Shown: in pieces, positions 30,757 to 52,524 of the stretch | Numbering within the stretch: position 1 is the stretch's first letter | How the letters are laid out: each line of letters opens with the position of its first letter | Virus record (IMG/VR): IMGVR_UViG_3300012157_000001 | Coordinates: 96,001-160,000 of that record | Source of the DNA: a virus | Lineage: Duplodnaviria; Caudoviricetes | DNA length: 64,000 bases | Strand: one strand, 5' to 3' | Translations under genes and position numbers: made by a program | Notes under the pieces: model-generated | What the model saw: the letters and a program-made list of their open reading frames with translations, nothing else | Databases searched by the model: none | Told to the model about the DNA's origin: nothing

Positions 30757-31367
30757 CGTTTACGGTACACCTTCCAGCCGCCGTGATCTTCGAGCTCGCT
30801 GAAACCGAGAGCTTCGAGCTCTCGTTGAGCTTTCTTGGTGGTCGGCCAGTCCGTGTCATCAAATACCCAAAGGCCGCCGCTGCGCACCTTGGGAGCCCAG
30901 AGCGCGACCTCTTCGCACGACACCTCTTCAGAGTGGTTCGAGTCTTGGTGCAACAGGTCGATAGTTCCGTCTCCGTAGAACCCGACGACGTCCCGTGAGC
31001 TCATTCGAATGAGCCGTGCGTACCAGACCAGGTCTAGTCGGTAGAGCGCCTCTTGGGCGCTTCGCGCGACTACTTCGTAGTCCACCTTCTGACCCCACCA
31101 CTTGTCATTTTCGGGATCATTGGTTCCCTCCAGGGCAGCCCCTGGAGTGAACGGGTCGATGCCGTCAACCCTTCCGAAGTCATTGCGTCCGCACCGCACT
31201 CCTAGCGCAATCGCGACAAGACTTCTGCCGCCGAACACGCCTAGCTCCACGCAGAGATTTTGGTCACGTGCGAGCGCCGACAACCGATAGGCTTTTTCGA
31301 TCGTGCACCATCCAAGCATGCCCGGTAGCTCCCGATCGATAATCGCTTCGACTTCCGACCGGCTCAT
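30753..31367 (-). CDS. class I SAM methyltransferase (paralog of 28790..29419)
   Basis: GWCT.EKA, VELGVFGGRS, GIDPF, IDLLHQDSNH, VFDDT. Confidence 0.85.
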   Translation of the reverse strand: MSRSEVEAIIDRELPGMLGWCTIEKAYRLSALARDQNLCVELGVFGGRSLVAIALGVRCGRNDFGRVDGIDPFTPGAALEGTNDPENDKWWGQKVDYEVVARSAQEALYRLDLVWYARLIRMSSRDVVGFYGDGTIDLLHQDSNHSEEVSCEEVALWAPKVRSGGLWVFDDTDWPTTKKAQRELEALGFSELEDHGGWKVYRKR

Positions 31368-33355
31368 GGAGTGACCCATGTCATGGTGCTGAGCTCTTTC
31401 TTATCGATGCGAGCGAACCACGCTTCACAGTCTTTGATGCCGTAGGTCAGAACAAGATCCGGACCATCCTCCACGAGGCCGGCGCAGAACTCGATGCCGT
31501 AGACCTGGAAGATCCAAGACGGAGACACTGCCGCCACATTGAACTCGGCGTCGAGCTTCACAAATCGATGCAGGTAGATTCTGGTTTCAACCGCCTCGAT
31601 CGTTTCGTGGACCACACACAAGTAGCCGCCCTCGAACGCAATCGCTGCGCCGCCGCGCGCATGGTCGAGAGCGAGCGGACACGCTCTACGCGCGTCCCCA
31701 GGGATCACTACCGTGGGATCAAGCGAATAGATGAACCGGATGTCGCCACCAACGACAACCGGCATCCAGTTCTTTTCATGCGTCTGCCGGCTCTCCTGTA
31801 CGTGAGCGTGGGTGACGTTGCCGTCGCGATCGAGGTCGAGCTTAGCGATCATTCTCCGAGCAGCATCGCGGTCGCACACGGTACAGCTCCCGGCTAGCAT
31901 TGGACCTTCCGGGCCCTTTAGCGATACCAGTCGGATGTCTTCGTATCCGACGATCTTCGAGTCTTGCCGAGGTGACGGATCCAGGTCTCGCATCCGCTTG
32001 GGATCGATCAACTCGCCAGAAGGCCCGAGACGTCCCAGGTAGTTCTCGGTTCGAACGATCCTGTCCGGGTCGTCGATGGAGTATTTCCTGCCGCTCATCG
32101 AATAGTTCACAGCACGCACGACGCACCAGAGCTCGCCATTATGGCGACAAACGCTTGGGTTCATCGGCCGATAGCCGTCGGGCGGCTCGAACTTGATCTT
32201 CGTGCTCTTCGCGCTCGGCAGCAGCTTTCCCAGCGCAAGGGGGCGGAGCATGCCCCGCGCCTCGTCACGACGTATATGCGGCGCTCGCGGCGAGACGCTC
32301 AGCCGATCCAGTTCTTCTTGGCTGCCAACGCCCAGTCGTTCCAGCTTCGCCTGAACAAAGTCACGCTCTGCCTGCGCGCGCTCTTCTCCTTCCGGGAGCG
32401 CATACCTCAAAATGTCGTATGGGAGCTCGTAGAGCGCGGGTAGGTGTTTGAAGTGCTCTCGATCGGCCGCGTGCACCCTACCGCTTCCTTTGAATCGTCC
32501 CCCCGCCTCAGCCAAGCGTGCCCACGCAATCGCCTGGTTCTTTCTACCAAGCTTAAATGCTGCCAGCGCTGCCATCCACGCACACTCGGAGTAGGTAGAA
32601 TCGGCCGCCAGACCGCGCGCCGCGGCGTAGATGGCTCCATCGAACTGCTTCATCAGGTACAGCATCTCCGCATGCTTGTACGCTGCCCACGCTGCCTCGC
32701 CGCCGAACTTGCCCAGGACAACGCAACGGTTGAAGGCATCCGCCGCCCGCTTGGGATCACCAAGTCCCTCGTACGAGGTGCCGAGGTAGTACCACCACCG
32801 CGCAGCGGTAGGCTCTTTCTTCACGTACTCCGAGAGCAATGCGACGTCTTGGATATACTTCCTGGCGTACTGTTCCTTCGATTTTTCGAGCTCCAGGAAC
32901 GATGCTCCCTTTAGGGTCGTCCTGGACCCACAGTGCAGGAACTCATGCGTCGGTCCGGTGAAGCACGCGCCTCGACGGGCGCGAATGATCTTCTCCTTCG
33001 AGTAGAAGCCCGTGAAGCTCTCCATGAGCACCACTTCTTCTTTGATCGCCGCAAGCGAGGATCTCAGATCCCGCTCTCCGAAGCTGAGTCGCTCGTCCGA
33101 GTCGACAATGACAATCCAAGTCGCTCCTAACTCTTCGGCGAAGCGGAAGCCCGCGTTCCTGGCAGTCGAAAAGTCGACCCAGGCGTGCTTGGCCAGGCGC
33201 AGCTTCTCCTTCGCTACCTCTCGCGCCACCGCTTCCGTGCCGTCCTTGATTCCGGTGTCAACGAGAAGCACCCGATCGACGTGATCAACCACGCTTCGAA
33301 TCGCGTCGCCGATCTCTGATTCGCGGCTATCGGTGATGGTGACAGAAACGATCAA
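31364..33355 (-). CDS. GT2 glycosyltransferase + TPR + five-bladed propeller (GH130/GH43-like) fusion
   Basis: LVDTG..DGT, WVDFSTARN, VDSDE, GPTHE; TPR RWWYYLGTSY; MNPSV, GYEDIRL, EKNWMP, RGG, IEFCAGL. Confidence 0.8.
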   Translation of the reverse strand: MIVSVTITDSRESEIGDAIRSVVDHVDRVLLVDTGIKDGTEAVAREVAKEKLRLAKHAWVDFSTARNAGFRFAEELGATWIVIVDSDERLSFGERDLRSSLAAIKEEVVLMESFTGFYSKEKIIRARRGACFTGPTHEFLHCGSRTTLKGASFLELEKSKEQYARKYIQDVALLSEYVKKEPTAARWWYYLGTSYEGLGDPKRAADAFNRCVVLGKFGGEAAWAAYKHAEMLYLMKQFDGAIYAAARGLAADSTYSECAWMAALAAFKLGRKNQAIAWARLAEAGGRFKGSGRVHAADREHFKHLPALYELPYDILRYALPEGEERAQAERDFVQAKLERLGVGSQEELDRLSVSPRAPHIRRDEARGMLRPLALGKLLPSAKSTKIKFEPPDGYRPMNPSVCRHNGELWCVVRAVNYSMSGRKYSIDDPDRIVRTENYLGRLGPSGELIDPKRMRDLDPSPRQDSKIVGYEDIRLVSLKGPEGPMLAGSCTVCDRDAARRMIAKLDLDRDGNVTHAHVQESRQTHEKNWMPVVVGGDIRFIYSLDPTVVIPGDARRACPLALDHARGGAAIAFEGGYLCVVHETIEAVETRIYLHRFVKLDAEFNVAAVSPSWIFQVYGIEFCAGLVEDGPDLVLTYGIKDCEAWFARIDKKELSTMTWVTP

Positions 33356-46009: not shown

Positions 46010-48667
46010 CTAACCGACGTCCGGAGTTGCCCAGTCGAACAGCGCCGGATCCAACTCAACCTCCGGGTTCGCCTGCATGCTCTCCGTCAGCTGTGCGAAC
46101 ATGTCACGCACCACGACATCCTGCGCCTCGTCCTCGTCCAGATCGGTACCGTCGATGACCTCCGCAGCAGTTGCAGTTTTTTCAGCTAGCAACGCGGCGA
46201 GCTTGTCATCGATCGTGTTCGCGCCGTCGTAGTACGTGATCACGCATTGGTTCTTCTGGCCGTAGCGGTGAATCCGGTCCTCGGCTTGCACCAGATCGAA
46301 TGGGCGCCACACGCGCTCGAAGATGAACATGTCCTGCGCTCGCGTCAGCGTCAGCCCGACCCCTGCTGCTGTGATCGAGCACACGAGCGCGTCGAGATAC
46401 TTCCGCTTCTCCGGCGGTCGGTTGAGGGGCAATCCGCTCTGGAATTCATCGATCGCTTTTTCGCGCGCGCGGCCCGTCACCTTGCCGGTGATCATGCCGA
46501 TGCGGAAACCGAGGTGCTCTAGCCCGGCTTCGATTGCGCTCAGCGCTTCGTCGTGATGCCCCATGATGATCAGCGGCCTGCCAGTGTCACGCAGGAACGC
46601 CGCCGACTCCGCGAGCACCGTATCGACCTTGCCGATTCCGGTGATCCGCCGCAGCGCCGTCAGCCGCGCAATGACCTCGGCTCTTGCGGCACGCATTGCT
46701 GCCGCTGGTCCGCCACGCCGACGTACCCATGCCAAAAACTCTGCCGCTGCTTGCCGATATTCGGTGGCGGCTTCCTCGGAGAGACCAATGGATCGGTACT
46801 CGCGAACCTTCTCGGGCAGGTTCAGAACTTCCTTGGTCCGTCGGAAGAGGTAATGCCCGCTCGTGCGCTCGCGAAGCTCACCGAGGTTCGCGTGGCCATG
46901 CACGTTCAACATTGTTTTGCCGCCGGGGATGTGCACCTCCTGCGGATCGCAGTAGCGCCACCAGTACTCTTCCTGATTTGCCCAATCCTTCGGGGCCACC
47001 ATGTTGAGAAGCGGGAATAGCTCGTACGGGCGCCCGTTGATCATCGGCGTGCCGGTCAAAAAGAACCGCCGCGGGATGATTTGCGAGAGCCGGTAGAGCG
47101 CCGCTGCTCGCTTCGGATCTTTCCCGGGATAGTGGCCGCCTTTTTCGTTCTCATAGACGCGGAGCTCCTTCACTGCCTGCGCCTCGTCCACGATGAGCGT
47201 GGCAAACCGACGGCGCTTCAGCTTGTCGAGCACCTCCGCATCCGACGCGGCCTCGTATCCGATGATGACACAGCTCGCCTTCAGCGCCTCGTCGGTTAGC
47301 TCGGCCGCCTTTTCTATTTTCGCGACGACCAGGTCGGGGCGCCACTTCATCGCTTCGCGCCGCCAGTTCTCACGGAGAGACGCGGGCACGACCACCAGCA
47401 CGGGCGCATCCATCGCCGCGAGCGCGGTCGGCGTCTTGCCGGTGCCCTGCTCCATGGCGAGGACGCCGCTGCCCTTGTCGTTGAGCCAGAGGACTCCTTC
47501 TCGCTGCCACGGCTGCAGACCCTCTGGAATGTCGCGTTTCGCCGCGGCCGGCGCCACACGCTCGCCTGTCGCCTCCTCGATTGCCTCTTTCTCCGCCTCG
47601 GTCGGTAGCTTCAGCTTCACCTCTTTGAGGCCGCAGAACCCGGCGTTGTACTTCTTGAAGAAGAGATAACCGAAACGCTCCATGCTGAGCTCGGCATCTT
47701 GGAGCGTCATCAAGCCGATCCACTGGCCCTTTGCGTTCGTTCCCGTGCGCGCGACGACCATGCGGCGACCGTCGTGGAGCTCAATCCGGTCACCTTCCTT
47801 GACCTGAATGGCCGCCGCGGGCGCTGGTTCGTCCACGGTGGTGGGCGCGCCCGCCGCCTGTCCCTCTGGCGCGGGGACGGGGAGCGCCGTGTGCGGCACC
47901 ATGAACGTCTCGCCGCTCGGCATAACGCCCAGGGTGCCGGCCAGCGTGTCCACGAGCGAATTCAAGACGAGCAGCCACTGCCGCTCCGTCGCTGGGAATA
48001 CGTCGTGCCACTTGCCGCGCCCGTCCTTGTACGTGATCACGCCCGCGGCCTTCATCGCGTTCTTCGTCTGCCGCCACGTGTCGCCCTGAATGAACGGCAG
48101 CATGACCTCCCAACCCGCCTGACCCGTGCGCGACGGCTCGCCCTCCCGCACGACGATGCCCTTGGGCTTCCCGTGCTCGATCGCGTTGCCCTCTTCGTCG
48201 TACTTCCACCCCTCGATGAACACGCGCTGCAGCGCATGCGCAGTACCGGCATAGCCGAGCGCGGTCGCGAGCTCCATCGCGCTGCCGATGTAGTGGCTAG
48301 CGTCGGACTGCTGGCGCTCCCAGGCGCTGCCGGCGGCATGTATCGCTGCGCTCACCGCAGCGCGCGAATCCATCATACCGCCCTTCGCCTCAATCGATTC
48401 GCGCATCGGCTGCGGCGCCGTCTCGATTGCGGCCTCGTACGCCGCCCGATCGGGACTCGCCGTCTCCGCAAACATCTTGTGCTTCTCGGCGCAGTACGGG
48501 CCGACGCCTCGCTCGATGCTCGCCGGGTCGCGAAGCGGGCGGCCGCAGATGAGGCACGACTTCGCGAGCATGAGCGTGCCTGCTTCGTGCTCGTAACCGT
48601 TCCATGCGTAGTGAGTCGGCCCTTCGTCCTCGGGCTCGTAGTCGTACGGCTGCATGACCTGGGCCAT
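46010..48667 (-). CDS. SNF2-family (SMARCAL1/HARP-like) helicase with N-terminal DUF6011-like Zn finger
   Basis: CLICGRPLRDPASIERGVGPYC; LQPWQREGV, AMEQGTGKT, VVVPASL..NW..E, IVDEAQ, LTGTP, GVGLTLT, QAEDRIHRYGQ. Confidence 0.9.
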   Translation of the reverse strand: MAQVMQPYDYEPEDEGPTHYAWNGYEHEAGTLMLAKSCLICGRPLRDPASIERGVGPYCAEKHKMFAETASPDRAAYEAAIETAPQPMRESIEAKGGMMDSRAAVSAAIHAAGSAWERQQSDASHYIGSAMELATALGYAGTAHALQRVFIEGWKYDEEGNAIEHGKPKGIVVREGEPSRTGQAGWEVMLPFIQGDTWRQTKNAMKAAGVITYKDGRGKWHDVFPATERQWLLVLNSLVDTLAGTLGVMPSGETFMVPHTALPVPAPEGQAAGAPTTVDEPAPAAAIQVKEGDRIELHDGRRMVVARTGTNAKGQWIGLMTLQDAELSMERFGYLFFKKYNAGFCGLKEVKLKLPTEAEKEAIEEATGERVAPAAAKRDIPEGLQPWQREGVLWLNDKGSGVLAMEQGTGKTPTALAAMDAPVLVVVPASLRENWRREAMKWRPDLVVAKIEKAAELTDEALKASCVIIGYEAASDAEVLDKLKRRRFATLIVDEAQAVKELRVYENEKGGHYPGKDPKRAAALYRLSQIIPRRFFLTGTPMINGRPYELFPLLNMVAPKDWANQEEYWWRYCDPQEVHIPGGKTMLNVHGHANLGELRERTSGHYLFRRTKEVLNLPEKVREYRSIGLSEEAATEYRQAAAEFLAWVRRRGGPAAAMRAARAEVIARLTALRRITGIGKVDTVLAESAAFLRDTGRPLIIMGHHDEALSAIEAGLEHLGFRIGMITGKVTGRAREKAIDEFQSGLPLNRPPEKRKYLDALVCSITAAGVGLTLTRAQDMFIFERVWRPFDLVQAEDRIHRYGQKNQCVITYYDGANTIDDKLAALLAEKTATAAEVIDGTDLDEDEAQDVVVRDMFAQLTESMQANPEVELDPALFDWATPDVG

Positions 48668-48936: not shown

Positions 48937-50352
48937 GTCGGATATTGTTTGCCTCTCCGTGGGCGCTTCTCAAGGGGGATCCTCGGAGGCATACGGGCCC
49001 CTCCGCGGGCGCTTTTGACAGCAGTGAAGTCGCCGGGCTCAAAAGGGAGAGGCCCGCCGGAGACACGACGCCTCTCCGTGGGCACTGAGCTCCCTCATCT
49101 TTCTCGGAGCAACGATGCCACTCCGCGGGCGCTCGGGGGCAATTTGTCCATGGTCGGAGTCACAACGCCACTCCGCGGGCACCGAAGGAAACAGAGCGGC
49201 CCGGAGGTACGACGCCTCTCCGTGGGCTTCCGCTGGCCAGTCGGGTGTCGTCGGAGGCACTACGCCGCTCCGCGGGCGCTGATGACGAAGCACTACATCA
49301 CCTCGGAGAGACCTCGCCGCTCCGCCGGCTCTGATCGCGCCCCCATCGGGGAACGTCGCAATGTGGCGCATATGCCCGGAGACACGACGCCTCTCCGCGG
49401 GCGCTGATGGCCCCCAACCGGAGATCCTGAATGAACCCCGCCAACGCCTCGGAGACACGACGCCTCTCCGCGGGCGCTGACGGCTTTCCGAAGACAGGCG
49501 GCTCGTGCGCATGTTGCGGCCCGGAGACACAACGCCCCTCCGCGGGCTCTGACGGGAGCATCCTGCTGGTGAGCGGCGCGCCATCGGGGTGCTCTCGGAG
49601 ACACGACGCCCCTCCGCGGGCTCTGCTGGATCGAATGCGGCGTCTGATGGAGCTCGCATCCTCGTCTCGGAGAGAACGACGCCCCTCCGCGGGCTCTGAC
49701 GGACGTAGTACGGCACGCCGTACACGCTGCTGGAGAAGCCTCGGAGACACGACGCCCCTCCGCGGGCGCTGATGGTCGTTGCGGCGCCGTAGGCCATTGT
49801 GAAGAGCTGGTCTCGGAGACACGACGCCCCTCCGCGGGCTCTGGCGGTCACGAACACGGAACGCTCCTCGACCTCGACGACTCGGAGAAACCACGCCGCT
49901 CCGCCGGCTCTGATCGCCGGGCACGCGCAGAGCGATGTACTCGATTGCCTGGACCTCGGAGAAACCACGCCGCTCCGCCGGCTCTGATCGTTGCTTCCGC
50001 CGTGGCTTTCGACACTTGGGTCGGCTCGGAGACACGACGCCCCTCCGCGGGCGCTGATGGATGCACCGCCGGAAGTTGGATGCGCGGTCACCCTTTGCTC
50101 GGAGACACGACGCCCCTCCGCGGGCTCTGATTGGGCGTAGATCGAGTTCGCCAAGCCCATCAGGGTGACGTCGGAGACACGACGCCCCTCCGCGGGCTCT
50201 GATTGGCGGTCAATGCCGAAGACGGTTCGGTCTGGGCGTGGGTCGGAGACACGACGCCCCTCCGCGGGCTCTGATTGGGAGCTCATCCAATTGTCGACAC
50301 GACCGTCAGGACCGGGTCGGAGACACGACGCCCCTCCGCGGGCTCTGATTGG
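48937..50352 (-). CRISPR. CRISPR array, 22 repeats (36-37 nt). Leader-proximal consensus CCAATCAGAGCCCGCGGAGGGGCGTCGTGTCTCCGAC. 14 spacers of 33-38 nt, then a degenerate tail with mostly 9-16 nt spacers
   Basis: repeat starts (+ coordinates) 50316, 50242, 50170, 50098, 50025, 49955, 49881, 49812, 49740, 49666, 49594, 49520, 49448, 49375, 49302, 49250, 49200, 49153, 49103, 49056, 48982, 48937; CGGAG/CTCCG stem; the identical copies are nearest the cas gene. Confidence 0.95.
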
Positions 50353-50423
50353 GGGCGCCGTAGCGACCCCTTTCGATTCGGGTGCTTGCATTGCATTTTG
50401 CGAGCGGTCCCATGGGCCGCTAC

Positions 50424-52433
50424 TTACTCCGCGGCTGAGACCGTTGGGCCTTCGTCCGTGTTCGCGTTCGTTTCGACGTCGTTTGCGGCATCGCGAGCGG
50501 CTGCCGCCTTTTTCGCGGCACCGGACTGGTCGCGCTCTTTGTAGCGGTCCGGACCGAACGCTGCCTTCAGCGCTGCCTTGAGCTCATGCACGCAGGCGAG
50601 CTGCCGATTGTGTCGTGCCGCCTGGTGGAGCTCGTTCGGCTTGTCCTCGGCCTTGTCCCGAAGCGCGATCTGATCGAGGTCTACCGCGCCGCTCACCTCG
50701 CAGATCTCGAACTGCGTACAAAGCTTCGCCGCGGTCACTCGATAGAAGTCGCGGCGGCGCCCCATTGCGTGGTTGCGCGCACCCGCTGCCATCGCTTCGA
50801 GGTGCTCGTCTTTCCGGCGCCACATCGCGAGCCAGAAGGTGAAAATCGTGTCCGGCGTGGTGAGCCCAAGGATCGCGGCGTACTTGCCGATGTCCGGCTC
50901 GAAGAGATCTTCGTGCGCCGCACGTCGCAGGTCGCGCCAGCGCTTCCACATGGCGTACTCCTCTTCACGCTTGTCGAGTACTTCGAGCATCACAGCCGAG
51001 ACGCGCTTGAGCTTCCAGTGCGCGCGCCACTGCGACAGACCGTGCGCCGCCTCGAACACGCGAGTCGGCTGCGACGCGATCCGCTTGGCGACCTCGGCAC
51101 GCGCGCTGTCGAAGAGGGTGTCGGCGACGCTGCGGAGCCTCTCCGCGAACCGCAGCGATTCGACTACTCCCGCCCGGCGGCCACGCTCGTGCGCGCCGCC
51201 AGGAAGCCGGAGCGGCTCGCCGTTGACGTGCGCGACGATCAGCGTCTTGTTCTCGTTGTCCTGCGTCCAGCAGAGGCGCACGTTCACCGTTCCCGTTCCG
51301 GGCGCGCGCTGAATGAGCGGCTCCGTCGGATCGAGGGTGAACTGCAAGCTGTACTCCCAGCGACCCGGCGACTCCTCGCTCGGAACGAGGTACGCCCACC
51401 GCACCTTGGTATCCGGCGGGATCGGCCGGTGGAGCACGACGTCCATGGTCACCCACCAGTTGCCAGCGGGGCCGTCGTACTTCGGCCGGTAGTAGTCCGG
51501 TGCCGCCGCCAATGCCTCGCGCGTCTCGGCGCGCACGCGCATGTGCACGGTCGCGCGCTGCTTGACGCGGCCGCCGTTCGCGCCGCCTTGGTTGCGCACG
51601 TCCGTGATCCGGAGCTCGTTGTTCTTGCCGGCGAGCAGATCGCCCCACGTGGCGTCGTTGATCTCCCAGCCGATCCGGCGGAGCCGCCTGCGGCTATACG
51701 TCGGTCGCCGCTTCGGACGACGGGGCTCGCCGTCGGGCCGCGGCTTCGGGCGCTTGCATGCCGCCGGCAGGTCTACACGCTGAATTGAGTGGTACGTGCC
51801 AACGGAGAGCAGCCTTGCCTCTTTGATCCAACCACGCAGCGCATCGGCTTGCGTCTCCAGCTGCGCGAGCCGACGCCACGCCTCAGGCCATTGCGCCTCT
51901 GCGAGCATTTCGTCACGCGCCTGAATGTCCGACCGCCGCTTTGCGTGGCGGTCTCCATCATTCGAGCCCCACGCCGAGCGGAGTCGCGCCGACCGCGCCG
52001 TGAACTCTTGCTGCGCCGGCTCCACGACCGCGGCGAACTGGCCACGCATCGGCTTCGCTAGCTCCGCGGCCGCTTTGCGCCAGGCCTTCAGCTCCGTGAT
52101 CAGGTCGACCTCGTCCGATACGTCCACGGCTTTCTTCACCGGCTTCACCGGCCGTCCTGTCGCCGCCGTCGCCTTGCGTCGCTTCTCGCGGATGCCTCCG
52201 CGCTTGCCGCCCTTGCCCGCGTGCTCGCCGATCCACTCGTCGAGCTGCTGGTACGCTTCGTCGATCTCGCCGAGCCCCGGCACGGTCTCCGACCGGATCG
52301 CGGCGAACTGTGAGCGGCGCCACCGCTCGATGGTCACGAGCGACTGATAGTACTGCGCTGCCGCGCGCATCTCCGCAAGCGCGAGCGACTCACCGGTCAG
52401 GAACTTTCGAACACCGAACTTGGCAACGAGCAT
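50424..52433 (-). CDS. cas12m: Cas12m-like (type V-M / V-U1, TnpB-derived) effector, predicted nuclease-dead and lacking the C-terminal Zn finger/RuvC-III
   Basis: 669 aa from ATG 52433 (RBS AAGGAG). Motifs match my recollection of Cas12m: YYQSLVTIER, WVTMDVVLHRPIP..TKVRWAYL, GTVNVRLCW (RuvC-I position), QWRA, W...D.HL.....GAR..A.GRRRDFYR..AAKL, R..A...EL...L. Lies 71 nt from the array. Confidence 0.8.
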   Translation of the reverse strand: MLVAKFGVRKFLTGESLALAEMRAAAQYYQSLVTIERWRRSQFAAIRSETVPGLGEIDEAYQQLDEWIGEHAGKGGKRGGIREKRRKATAATGRPVKPVKKAVDVSDEVDLITELKAWRKAAAELAKPMRGQFAAVVEPAQQEFTARSARLRSAWGSNDGDRHAKRRSDIQARDEMLAEAQWPEAWRRLAQLETQADALRGWIKEARLLSVGTYHSIQRVDLPAACKRPKPRPDGEPRRPKRRPTYSRRRLRRIGWEINDATWGDLLAGKNNELRITDVRNQGGANGGRVKQRATVHMRVRAETREALAAAPDYYRPKYDGPAGNWWVTMDVVLHRPIPPDTKVRWAYLVPSEESPGRWEYSLQFTLDPTEPLIQRAPGTGTVNVRLCWTQDNENKTLIVAHVNGEPLRLPGGAHERGRRAGVVESLRFAERLRSVADTLFDSARAEVAKRIASQPTRVFEAAHGLSQWRAHWKLKRVSAVMLEVLDKREEEYAMWKRWRDLRRAAHEDLFEPDIGKYAAILGLTTPDTIFTFWLAMWRRKDEHLEAMAAGARNHAMGRRRDFYRVTAAKLCTQFEICEVSGAVDLDQIALRDKAEDKPNELHQAARHNRQLACVHELKAALKAAFGPDRYKERDQSGAAKKAAAARDAANDVETNANTDEGPTVSAAE

Positions 52434-52505
52434 GGGACTGGTCTCCTTTGTCTTTGGTTCAAGCAGTCGAGGCGAGCGCTTCGCCCCGCGCTGCCATTGA
52501 CCCAC

Positions 52506-52524
52506 GTGCTGCCAGTGCTGTCAA
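52506..52524 (-). promoter_or_regulatory. -35 box with tandem operator-like motif upstream of the cas12m-like gene (copy B)
   Basis: TTGACAGCACTGGCAGCAC, 18/19 identical to copy A; GTCAAT 17 nt after TTGACA. Confidence 0.55.

Follow-up and report, generated by a model that had tools for sequence, protein, structure and literature searches.

The DNA analysed here (the window; 64,000 nucleotides) comprises bases 96001-160000 of the 179,401-bp IMG/VR record IMGVR_UViG_3300012157_000001, a viral genome designated G000. At 48937-52524 on the minus strand, the window carries a gene for a Cas12m-like effector followed by a CRISPR array (array A), in which long spacers are succeeded by a tail of compact units with short, conserved guides (mini-guides). 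On balance, the locus appears to be a virus-borne, adaptation-free system derived from type V-M that would carry out multiplexed CRISPR interference without cutting. It is highly probable that the effector is a non-cutting, RNA-guided binder, and the mini-guides are likely to be functional.

A truncated Cas12m-like effector

The initial annotation had described a 669-aa gene for a Cas12m-like protein, and both the reading frame (Table 1) and the identity were borne out. No family match to the effector was found in Pfam or NCBIfam. Sequence comparison with the PDB returned Cas12m matches (E 3.8e-8), including an alignment to 23vw. An AlphaFold model was built from 25 homologues (predicted local distance difference test score, pLDDT, 77) and compared by Foldseek, in which the top four matches were all Cas12m (E 1.5e-15 to 2.5e-10) and the next was at 9e-4. 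The proposed check of the WED/RuvC fold against Cas12m and TnpB structures was made with VIA-align and came out in favour of Cas12m, with Z 16.3 for GoCas12m (root-mean-square deviation 5.1, 502 residues aligned) against 11.5 for TnpB. The GoCas12m alignment ends at residue 567 of 604, before the RuvC-III aspartate D590 (PMC11013384). Judged from the model, the effector is a Cas12m by fold, but it fails to show two structural features of membership, the RuvC triad and the zinc finger.

The expectation of a protein without a cutting site agrees with Arg386 and Gly582 at the RuvC-I and RuvC-II positions and with the missing RuvC-III. The RuvC-I position varies freely in close homologues. A zinc finger (TNB domain) is missing too: no CxxC pair was found in the C-terminal 170 aa, and the structural alignment stops ahead of that domain.

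A FastTree phylogeny of 174 effector relatives, from which the named reference Cas12m proteins were absent, was rooted at its midpoint. The effector was placed in a clade of 61 proteins (support 0.998), 58 of which are without both zinc finger and RuvC-III; in the finger-bearing proteins of the same tree the triads are mostly DED, NED or NDD. Many residues of the effector clade are invariant, which argues against its members being pseudogenes. Effector motifs were absent from 185,579 GTDB genomes in a motif scan; the clade was seen in virus-like contigs, and the truncated type is also carried by a terminase-bearing phage (G005). A single effector gene is present in the G000 genome (tblastn). 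With neither zinc finger nor RuvC-III, it is reduced further than the characterised Cas12m proteins that were found.

Array layout and conserved short guides

Array A consists of 22 repeats of 36-37 nt running from 50351 down to 48937, co-oriented with the effector gene as initially annotated; a probable 23rd repeat has collapsed near 49040 and is intact in the relative L177. The distance from the effector stop codon to the first repeat is 72 nt, correcting the 71 nt given before. An ending in GAC or GAG, ascribed to the repeats as a whole, holds for most of them (three end in GGG and one in GGC), and the described stem, of 5 bp, is retained in 21 of the 22. The stem ends 2 nt ahead of the spacer and is accompanied by a pseudoknot of 3-4 bp, the fourth pair of which co-varies (C-G/G-C) within arrays; the layout matches that published for Cas12m2 (PMC10442227).

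Two features had been missed by the initial annotation. Past the 14 long spacers, the units of array A shrink to nominal spacers of 9-16 nt, and a second, orphan array (array B) lies at 31241-32739 of the G000 genome (+ strand; L027). Array B holds 20 repeats of the array A family with no cas gene beside it, runs from long spacers to compact units, is interrupted by a 216-nt insert and adjoins endolysin-like genes.

In both arrays, the gap between the end of a repeat and the pseudoknot strand that comes next was measured: each of the 11 short gaps was 17-24 nt, and long units gave 39-47 nt. In the repeats following short guides, the 5' stem strand was kept in 11 of 11, with 4.9 of 5 pairs, while identity was 0.55 in the loop and 0.43 in the 5' 8 nt. 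In Cas12m2 the heteroduplex is 17 bp long and the first 7 nt of the repeat are not ordered in the structure (PMC10442227). Given these gaps, the kept stem and the Cas12m2 structure, a compact unit would correspond to about one mature CRISPR RNA (crRNA) minus its dispensable parts, and the distal units may have been trimmed to a minimal working crRNA of ~29-nt scaffold plus 17-24 nt.

Related loci vary in repeat sequence and layout. An effector 62% identical to that of G000 (P0005; L024) is accompanied by a repeat that clearly differs in sequence but has its stem and pseudoknot in the same arrangement. In a 92%-identical relative (L010:8008-8253), compact units begin directly after the effector gene and two repeats carry a compensatory stem change.

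Array tails were compared with those of the four relatives in which they were readable (L020, L176, L177 and L182), none of which has a full long spacer in common with G000. The helicases of the compared viruses are 69-96% identical, while the guide starts are identical. The first 14-16 nt of A15 are kept in 4 of 4 relatives and the first 12-16 nt of A19 and A20 in three; 18 nt of A18 are kept in one relative and 8-9 nt of A22 in three. Guide 5' ends are identical while 3' ends differ, even in a long spacer (spacer 14; Table 1). Tail units have been gained and lost as modules among the relatives, and the same modular tail was found in contigs from other studies. Because guide starts are kept and 3' parts and long spacers differ, selection appears to act on the part of the guide proximal to the protospacer-adjacent motif (PAM). 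Held by selection on their first 8-18 nt, the compact guides would be a fixed set directed at stable targets, with host genes as the likeliest.

Of the 24 long spacers in arrays A and B, 20 were read as coding strand by a host codon model (calibration, 82% for true sense) and 16 by a viral one. The excess hints at strand-biased acquisition or retention. The codon model gave no support to the idea that all mini-guides run antisense to coding DNA. A 450-codon open frame passes through most of array A (window 49039-50391, minus strand) and is probably a by-product of the GC-rich repeats.

Table 1. Coordinates of the effector, array A and associated features (window positions, unless another genome is named).
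Feature	Position	Strand	Basis or remark
Cas12m-like effector, 669 aa, ATG start; WED lobe, REC lobe, a RuvC fold at ~residues 382-634 and a disordered tail, with neither zinc finger nor RuvC-III	50424..52433	-	Sequence, structure comparison, tree
-35-like hexamer upstream of effector, then repeats of a short motif that recurs at several other viral gene starts	52519..52524	-	Predicted promoter function
Arg386, in place of the RuvC-I catalytic Asp	51276..51278	-	Alignment to PDB 23vw; same column as Asp of G001 Cas12m
Gly582, in place of the RuvC-II catalytic Glu	50688..50690	-	Alignment of relatives
Leader, 72 nt, with short motif common to relatives	50352..50423	-	Sequence comparison
Variable segment of array A, with 15 repeats and 14 spacers 33-38 nt long	49302..50351	-	Repeat analysis
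First 14 nt of spacer 14	49361..49374	-	Identical in a spacer of L182; remainder differs
Mini-guide A15	49286..49301	-	14-nt core 49301-49288 kept in five viruses; matches host response-regulator gene behind TTN
Compact-unit tail of array A, guides A16-A22; stems retained, drift in loops and 5' ends; collapsed repeat near 49040	48937..49285	-	Repeat analysis, relatives
SNF2-family helicase, downstream neighbour of array A	46010..48667	-	PF00176, E 1e-18
Repeat copies in G283 (L115 / L135 and L136)	G283:C9:84145-84267; G283:C5:8572-8694	two sites	Match to viral repeat

Candidate targets, mechanism and alternatives

To our knowledge, hardly anything is known of what Cas12m systems target in nature. 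A search of the spacers for targets and a PAM had been suggested at the outset. The long spacers returned no protospacer from the own genome, related viruses, phage and plasmid collections, IMG/VR or 401 Polyangiales genomes; one host-gene candidate, with a TTN flank, was obtained for mini-guide A15. BLAST of the array against the 401 genomes gave chance-level spacer matches only, in a weak test with 2 candidates scored per genome. Spacers and guides were compared with the G000 genome, three related viruses (G001, G003 and G004, described below) and phage and plasmid collections, and nothing above chance was found. Self-targets behind TTN in the G000 genome were no longer than 11 nt. IMG/VR scans were empty for A15, A19, the A6 peptide and the B5 peptide, and gave one match, in an unrelated contig, for A20.

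The A15 core is present exactly in 14 of the 401 Polyangiales genomes, with TTN upstream in 11 of the 14, codon context confounding the PAM call. In 8 of the 14 genomes the core falls in a gene for a single-domain response regulator, each time at the same position, the guide being antisense to the mRNA. In one genus it stands behind TTC in the orthologous receiver-domain gene (5/7 genomes). The conserved length of A15 ends where the host codon position turns variable. Under a fifth-order Markov expectation, which underestimates coding motifs, ~0.001 TTN-plus-14-mer sites would occur per 8 Mb. The same genus holds one of four relatives of the viral DnaB and the only genome among the 401 with the G000 repeat family (G283); Cas1 is present in 2 of its 7 genomes. 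Silencing of the host response regulator through A15 is a lead, not a result, and is placed slightly on the doubtful side of an even chance.

A pilin-like gene (L258; G357:C53:32119) has the A15 core behind TTC, which would make receptor silencing an alternative target. Matches of TTN plus seed for A16 and B10 were 11 nt long and non-orthologous, and were attributed to chance. Targeting of start codons by the mini-guides was likewise discarded: 11 of the 16 mini-guides do contain ATG/CAT (shuffle p 0.003), yet so do 12 of 24 long spacers, and no matching gene start was found.

In G283, four tandem spacer-less copies of the repeat are flanked by a promoter-like sequence on one side and a terminator-like hairpin on the other. 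The copies occur twice, inside a duplicated 1.84-kb cassette, on contigs of 115 kb and 400 kb with cellular and insertion sequence-like genes. No Cas12m of the truncated type was found in G283, a metagenome-assembled genome, and no spacer-bearing array with the G000 repeat was found in the 401 Polyangiales genomes. The cassette links this repeat family to the very genus in which the A15 target was seen, a TTN-flanked A15 site being present in only ~3% of Polyangiales genomes. The cassette, found in one genome, is a possible cell-side RNA decoy against the viral Cas12m.

By analogy with Cas12m, the array transcript would be processed or loaded into crRNAs by the effector. Effector and pseudoknotted crRNA would then clamp TTN-flanked double-stranded DNA without cutting, consistent with the lost catalytic site, and the bound effector may block transcription or replication; GoCas12m blocks transcription in promoters and coding regions (PMC11013384). 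The leader-proximal long spacers appear recent and fast in turnover and are probably aimed at rival viruses or other mobile DNA, as in G001. In its widest form, the proposal is that possibly tailless myxobacterial viruses use a truncated Cas12m as a multiplexed repressor of host genes, with conserved guides of 14-17 nt (one against a response regulator), and are answered by spacer-less repeat decoys of the host, a cell-to-virus RNA anti-CRISPR. This is put forward tentatively, at a lower confidence than the A15 lead.

Several observations weigh against silencing of host genes by conserved mini-guides. Sharing of old trailer units is what common descent would lead one to expect. The A15 site is a very common receiver-domain motif in preferred codons, the TTN is accounted for by the Lys/Asn codon that comes next, and TTN-flanked matches to the core also occur in acyl-CoA dehydrogenase and pilin-like genes, which are unrelated. 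At up to one mismatch, A15 matches were not above a reversed-pattern control, which is invalid for this guide since A15 is a near mirror repeat and the control finds the same sites. In the genomes searched, no orthologous TTN-flanked target was found for A14, A16, A18, A19, A20, B9, B10 or B18, and the TTN PAM is a candidate drawn from the A15 matches only. The host assignment is a proxy from viral DnaB relatives, not proof. Silencing could be weakened by the RuvC loss of the effector, since the RuvC pocket of Cas12m2 helps DNA binding (PMC10442227).

All guides could instead serve competition between viruses or elements (superinfection exclusion by silencing), with mini-guides hitting conserved sites of an unsequenced rival or satellite virus and the response-regulator match arising by chance. 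Silencing of plasmids and phages by Cas12m is known (PMC11013384), long spacers turn over quickly and most guides are without a host match; in addition, spacer 5 of G001 matches 34/34 a gene of G001 itself in the conserved virion-gene block of the virus family (L073:14153-14186; no TTN flank). This explanation is rather unlikely, given the chance-level viral, phage and plasmid searches and near-empty IMG/VR scans, and guide starts that stay identical over long times are easier to reconcile with stable targets than with viral ones that evolve fast. Ordinary trailer-end decay, in which old spacers were shortened by deletion and shared by descent and only the long spacers function, is improbable. 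Trailer repeats do usually degenerate, one array A repeat has collapsed, and array B and the G003 and G004 arrays mix lengths too, but gap lengths cluster at 17-24 nt with none below 17, the loops have drifted and the pairing positions have not, and identical 5' ends are joined to differing 3' ends even in a long spacer. It is very improbable that RNA or the virus's own genes (autoregulation) are what the effector mainly acts on, or that some tail units are structural (terminator or promoter) and not guides: the unit after A20, with the viral promoter-type motif in place of a conserved guide, would suit such a role, as would the ability of A20 and A22, by inspection, to pair with the preceding repeat, but TTN self-targets stop at 11 nt and no dispersed repeats were found at gene junctions in the G000 genome. 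Silencing of stable targets by selected mini-guides is retained as the preferred reading.

The virus, its relatives and known systems

G000 had been taken as a virus rather than ordinary chromosome, and the IMG/VR record supports this, with terminal repeats and a CheckV completeness of 100; its ends fall within a low-complexity repeat. Absence of cas1, first noted for 64 kb, extends to the entire 179,401-bp record by Cas1 profile; cas2 and cas4 were not searched with profiles. The SNF2 helicase beside the locus was confirmed and is the constant downstream neighbour of effector and array in close relatives; its part in the system is not shown. In one close relative the helicase contains an intein with a LAGLIDADG domain (L176:685-4617).

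Among the large G000 proteins scanned for marks of Caudoviricetes, no terminase, portal or HK97 capsid was recognised by PHROG or Pfam, and there was no PF03237 match. A co-oriented block of membrane and beta-rich proteins at genome 200-31100 (L026, L027) contained no recognisable terminase or HK97 capsid. One capsid candidate falls in virus-only Atlas clusters; its single-sequence fold gave pLDDT 29 and no usable model. G000 may be a tailless virus of an undescribed family. Its DnaB has four GTDB relatives, all Polyangiaceae or Myxococcales, and with DnaB as proxy the host is probably a member of the Polyangiales.

A -35 hexamer and repeats of one 7-nt motif are found at many viral gene starts (window 52524, 48704 and 58805 on the minus strand and 49015 on the plus strand; genome 44986, 65290, 93442 and 94502), and the motif also occurs inside the array A tail. 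The shared motif suggests a virus-specific regulator. A tRNA-Ile with the unusual anticodon AAT lies at window 18058-18134 (minus strand; ARAGORN).

Four related IMG/VR viruses (G001-G004) were found by the capsid candidate at 80-93% identity. All four (L064, L065, L066, L067) carry a Cas12m of the zinc-finger, acidic-triad type with long arrays, and the virus family therefore carries Cas12m repeatedly. In G003 the array regions number at least three; short units are numerous in them, and the repeat is a different one, of hairpin type.

With type V-M Cas12m, represented by MmCas12m/Cas12m2 (PDB 8HHL; PMC10442227) and GoCas12m (PDB 8PM4; PMC11013384), the locus shares the fold with its REC coiled-coil insertion, effector size, adjacent 36-nt repeats with stem and pseudoknot, a non-canonical RuvC and no Cas1 found; likeness in a TTN PAM is suggested by one candidate target. 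It differs in its occurrence in virus-like contigs and in the conserved mini-guide tail. Known Cas12m clades keep a zinc finger and a three-residue RuvC site (HEK/HQK, HDD, DED, NED or DND), a triad being kept in all four published clades (PMC10442227), whereas the G000 clade is without zinc finger, RuvC-III and the RuvC-II acid. The TnpB/TldR profile (single omegaRNA, ~400 aa, no array) does not fit an effector of 669 aa with arrays. CreR/crlRNA mini-arrays (10.1101/2023.03.03.530964) and the nuclease-dead TnpB regulators TldR (PMC10705468) resemble the locus in RNA-guided repression through short complementarity; those systems use single guides or standalone repeats, in contrast to the many fixed short guides in tandem behind a viral variable array. 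Racr RNA anti-CRISPRs (PMC10651486) resemble the G283 cassette as spacer-less repeat mimics, but are virus-encoded and act against host CRISPR; in G283, four tandem copies on bacterial contigs mimic a viral repeat, and the direction would be reversed.

MvCas12m of myxophage MV-1 (bioRxiv 10.64898/2026.09.14.751636) is likewise virus-encoded beside an array, with no cas1/2/4 in MV-1 and a host assigned to Polyangiales. It has 610 aa, an intact D-E-D triad and eight spacers without targets found, in a tailed HK97-type phage; G000 differs in having no PF03237 terminase match, two arrays, a truncated effector and mini-guides. Where this one published viral Cas12m had no targets, the G000 locus supplies guides that are conserved, a candidate for both host target and PAM, and what may be a counter-measure, and so opens the use of CRISPR interference by a virus against genes of its host to direct testing. 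A naturally dead Cas12m without zinc finger and RuvC-III, with ~50-nt self-contained guide units in tandem, would offer a compact basis for base editing or for repression in multiplex. In the literature, coverage of which was incomplete, no paper was found that describes a zinc-finger-less Cas12m clade, a tail of conserved mini-guides, a target in the host or repeat decoys in cells. A viral Cas12m is already known from the 2026 preprint on MvCas12m; apparently new here are the truncated, zinc-finger-less clade and the conserved mini-guides of type V-M.

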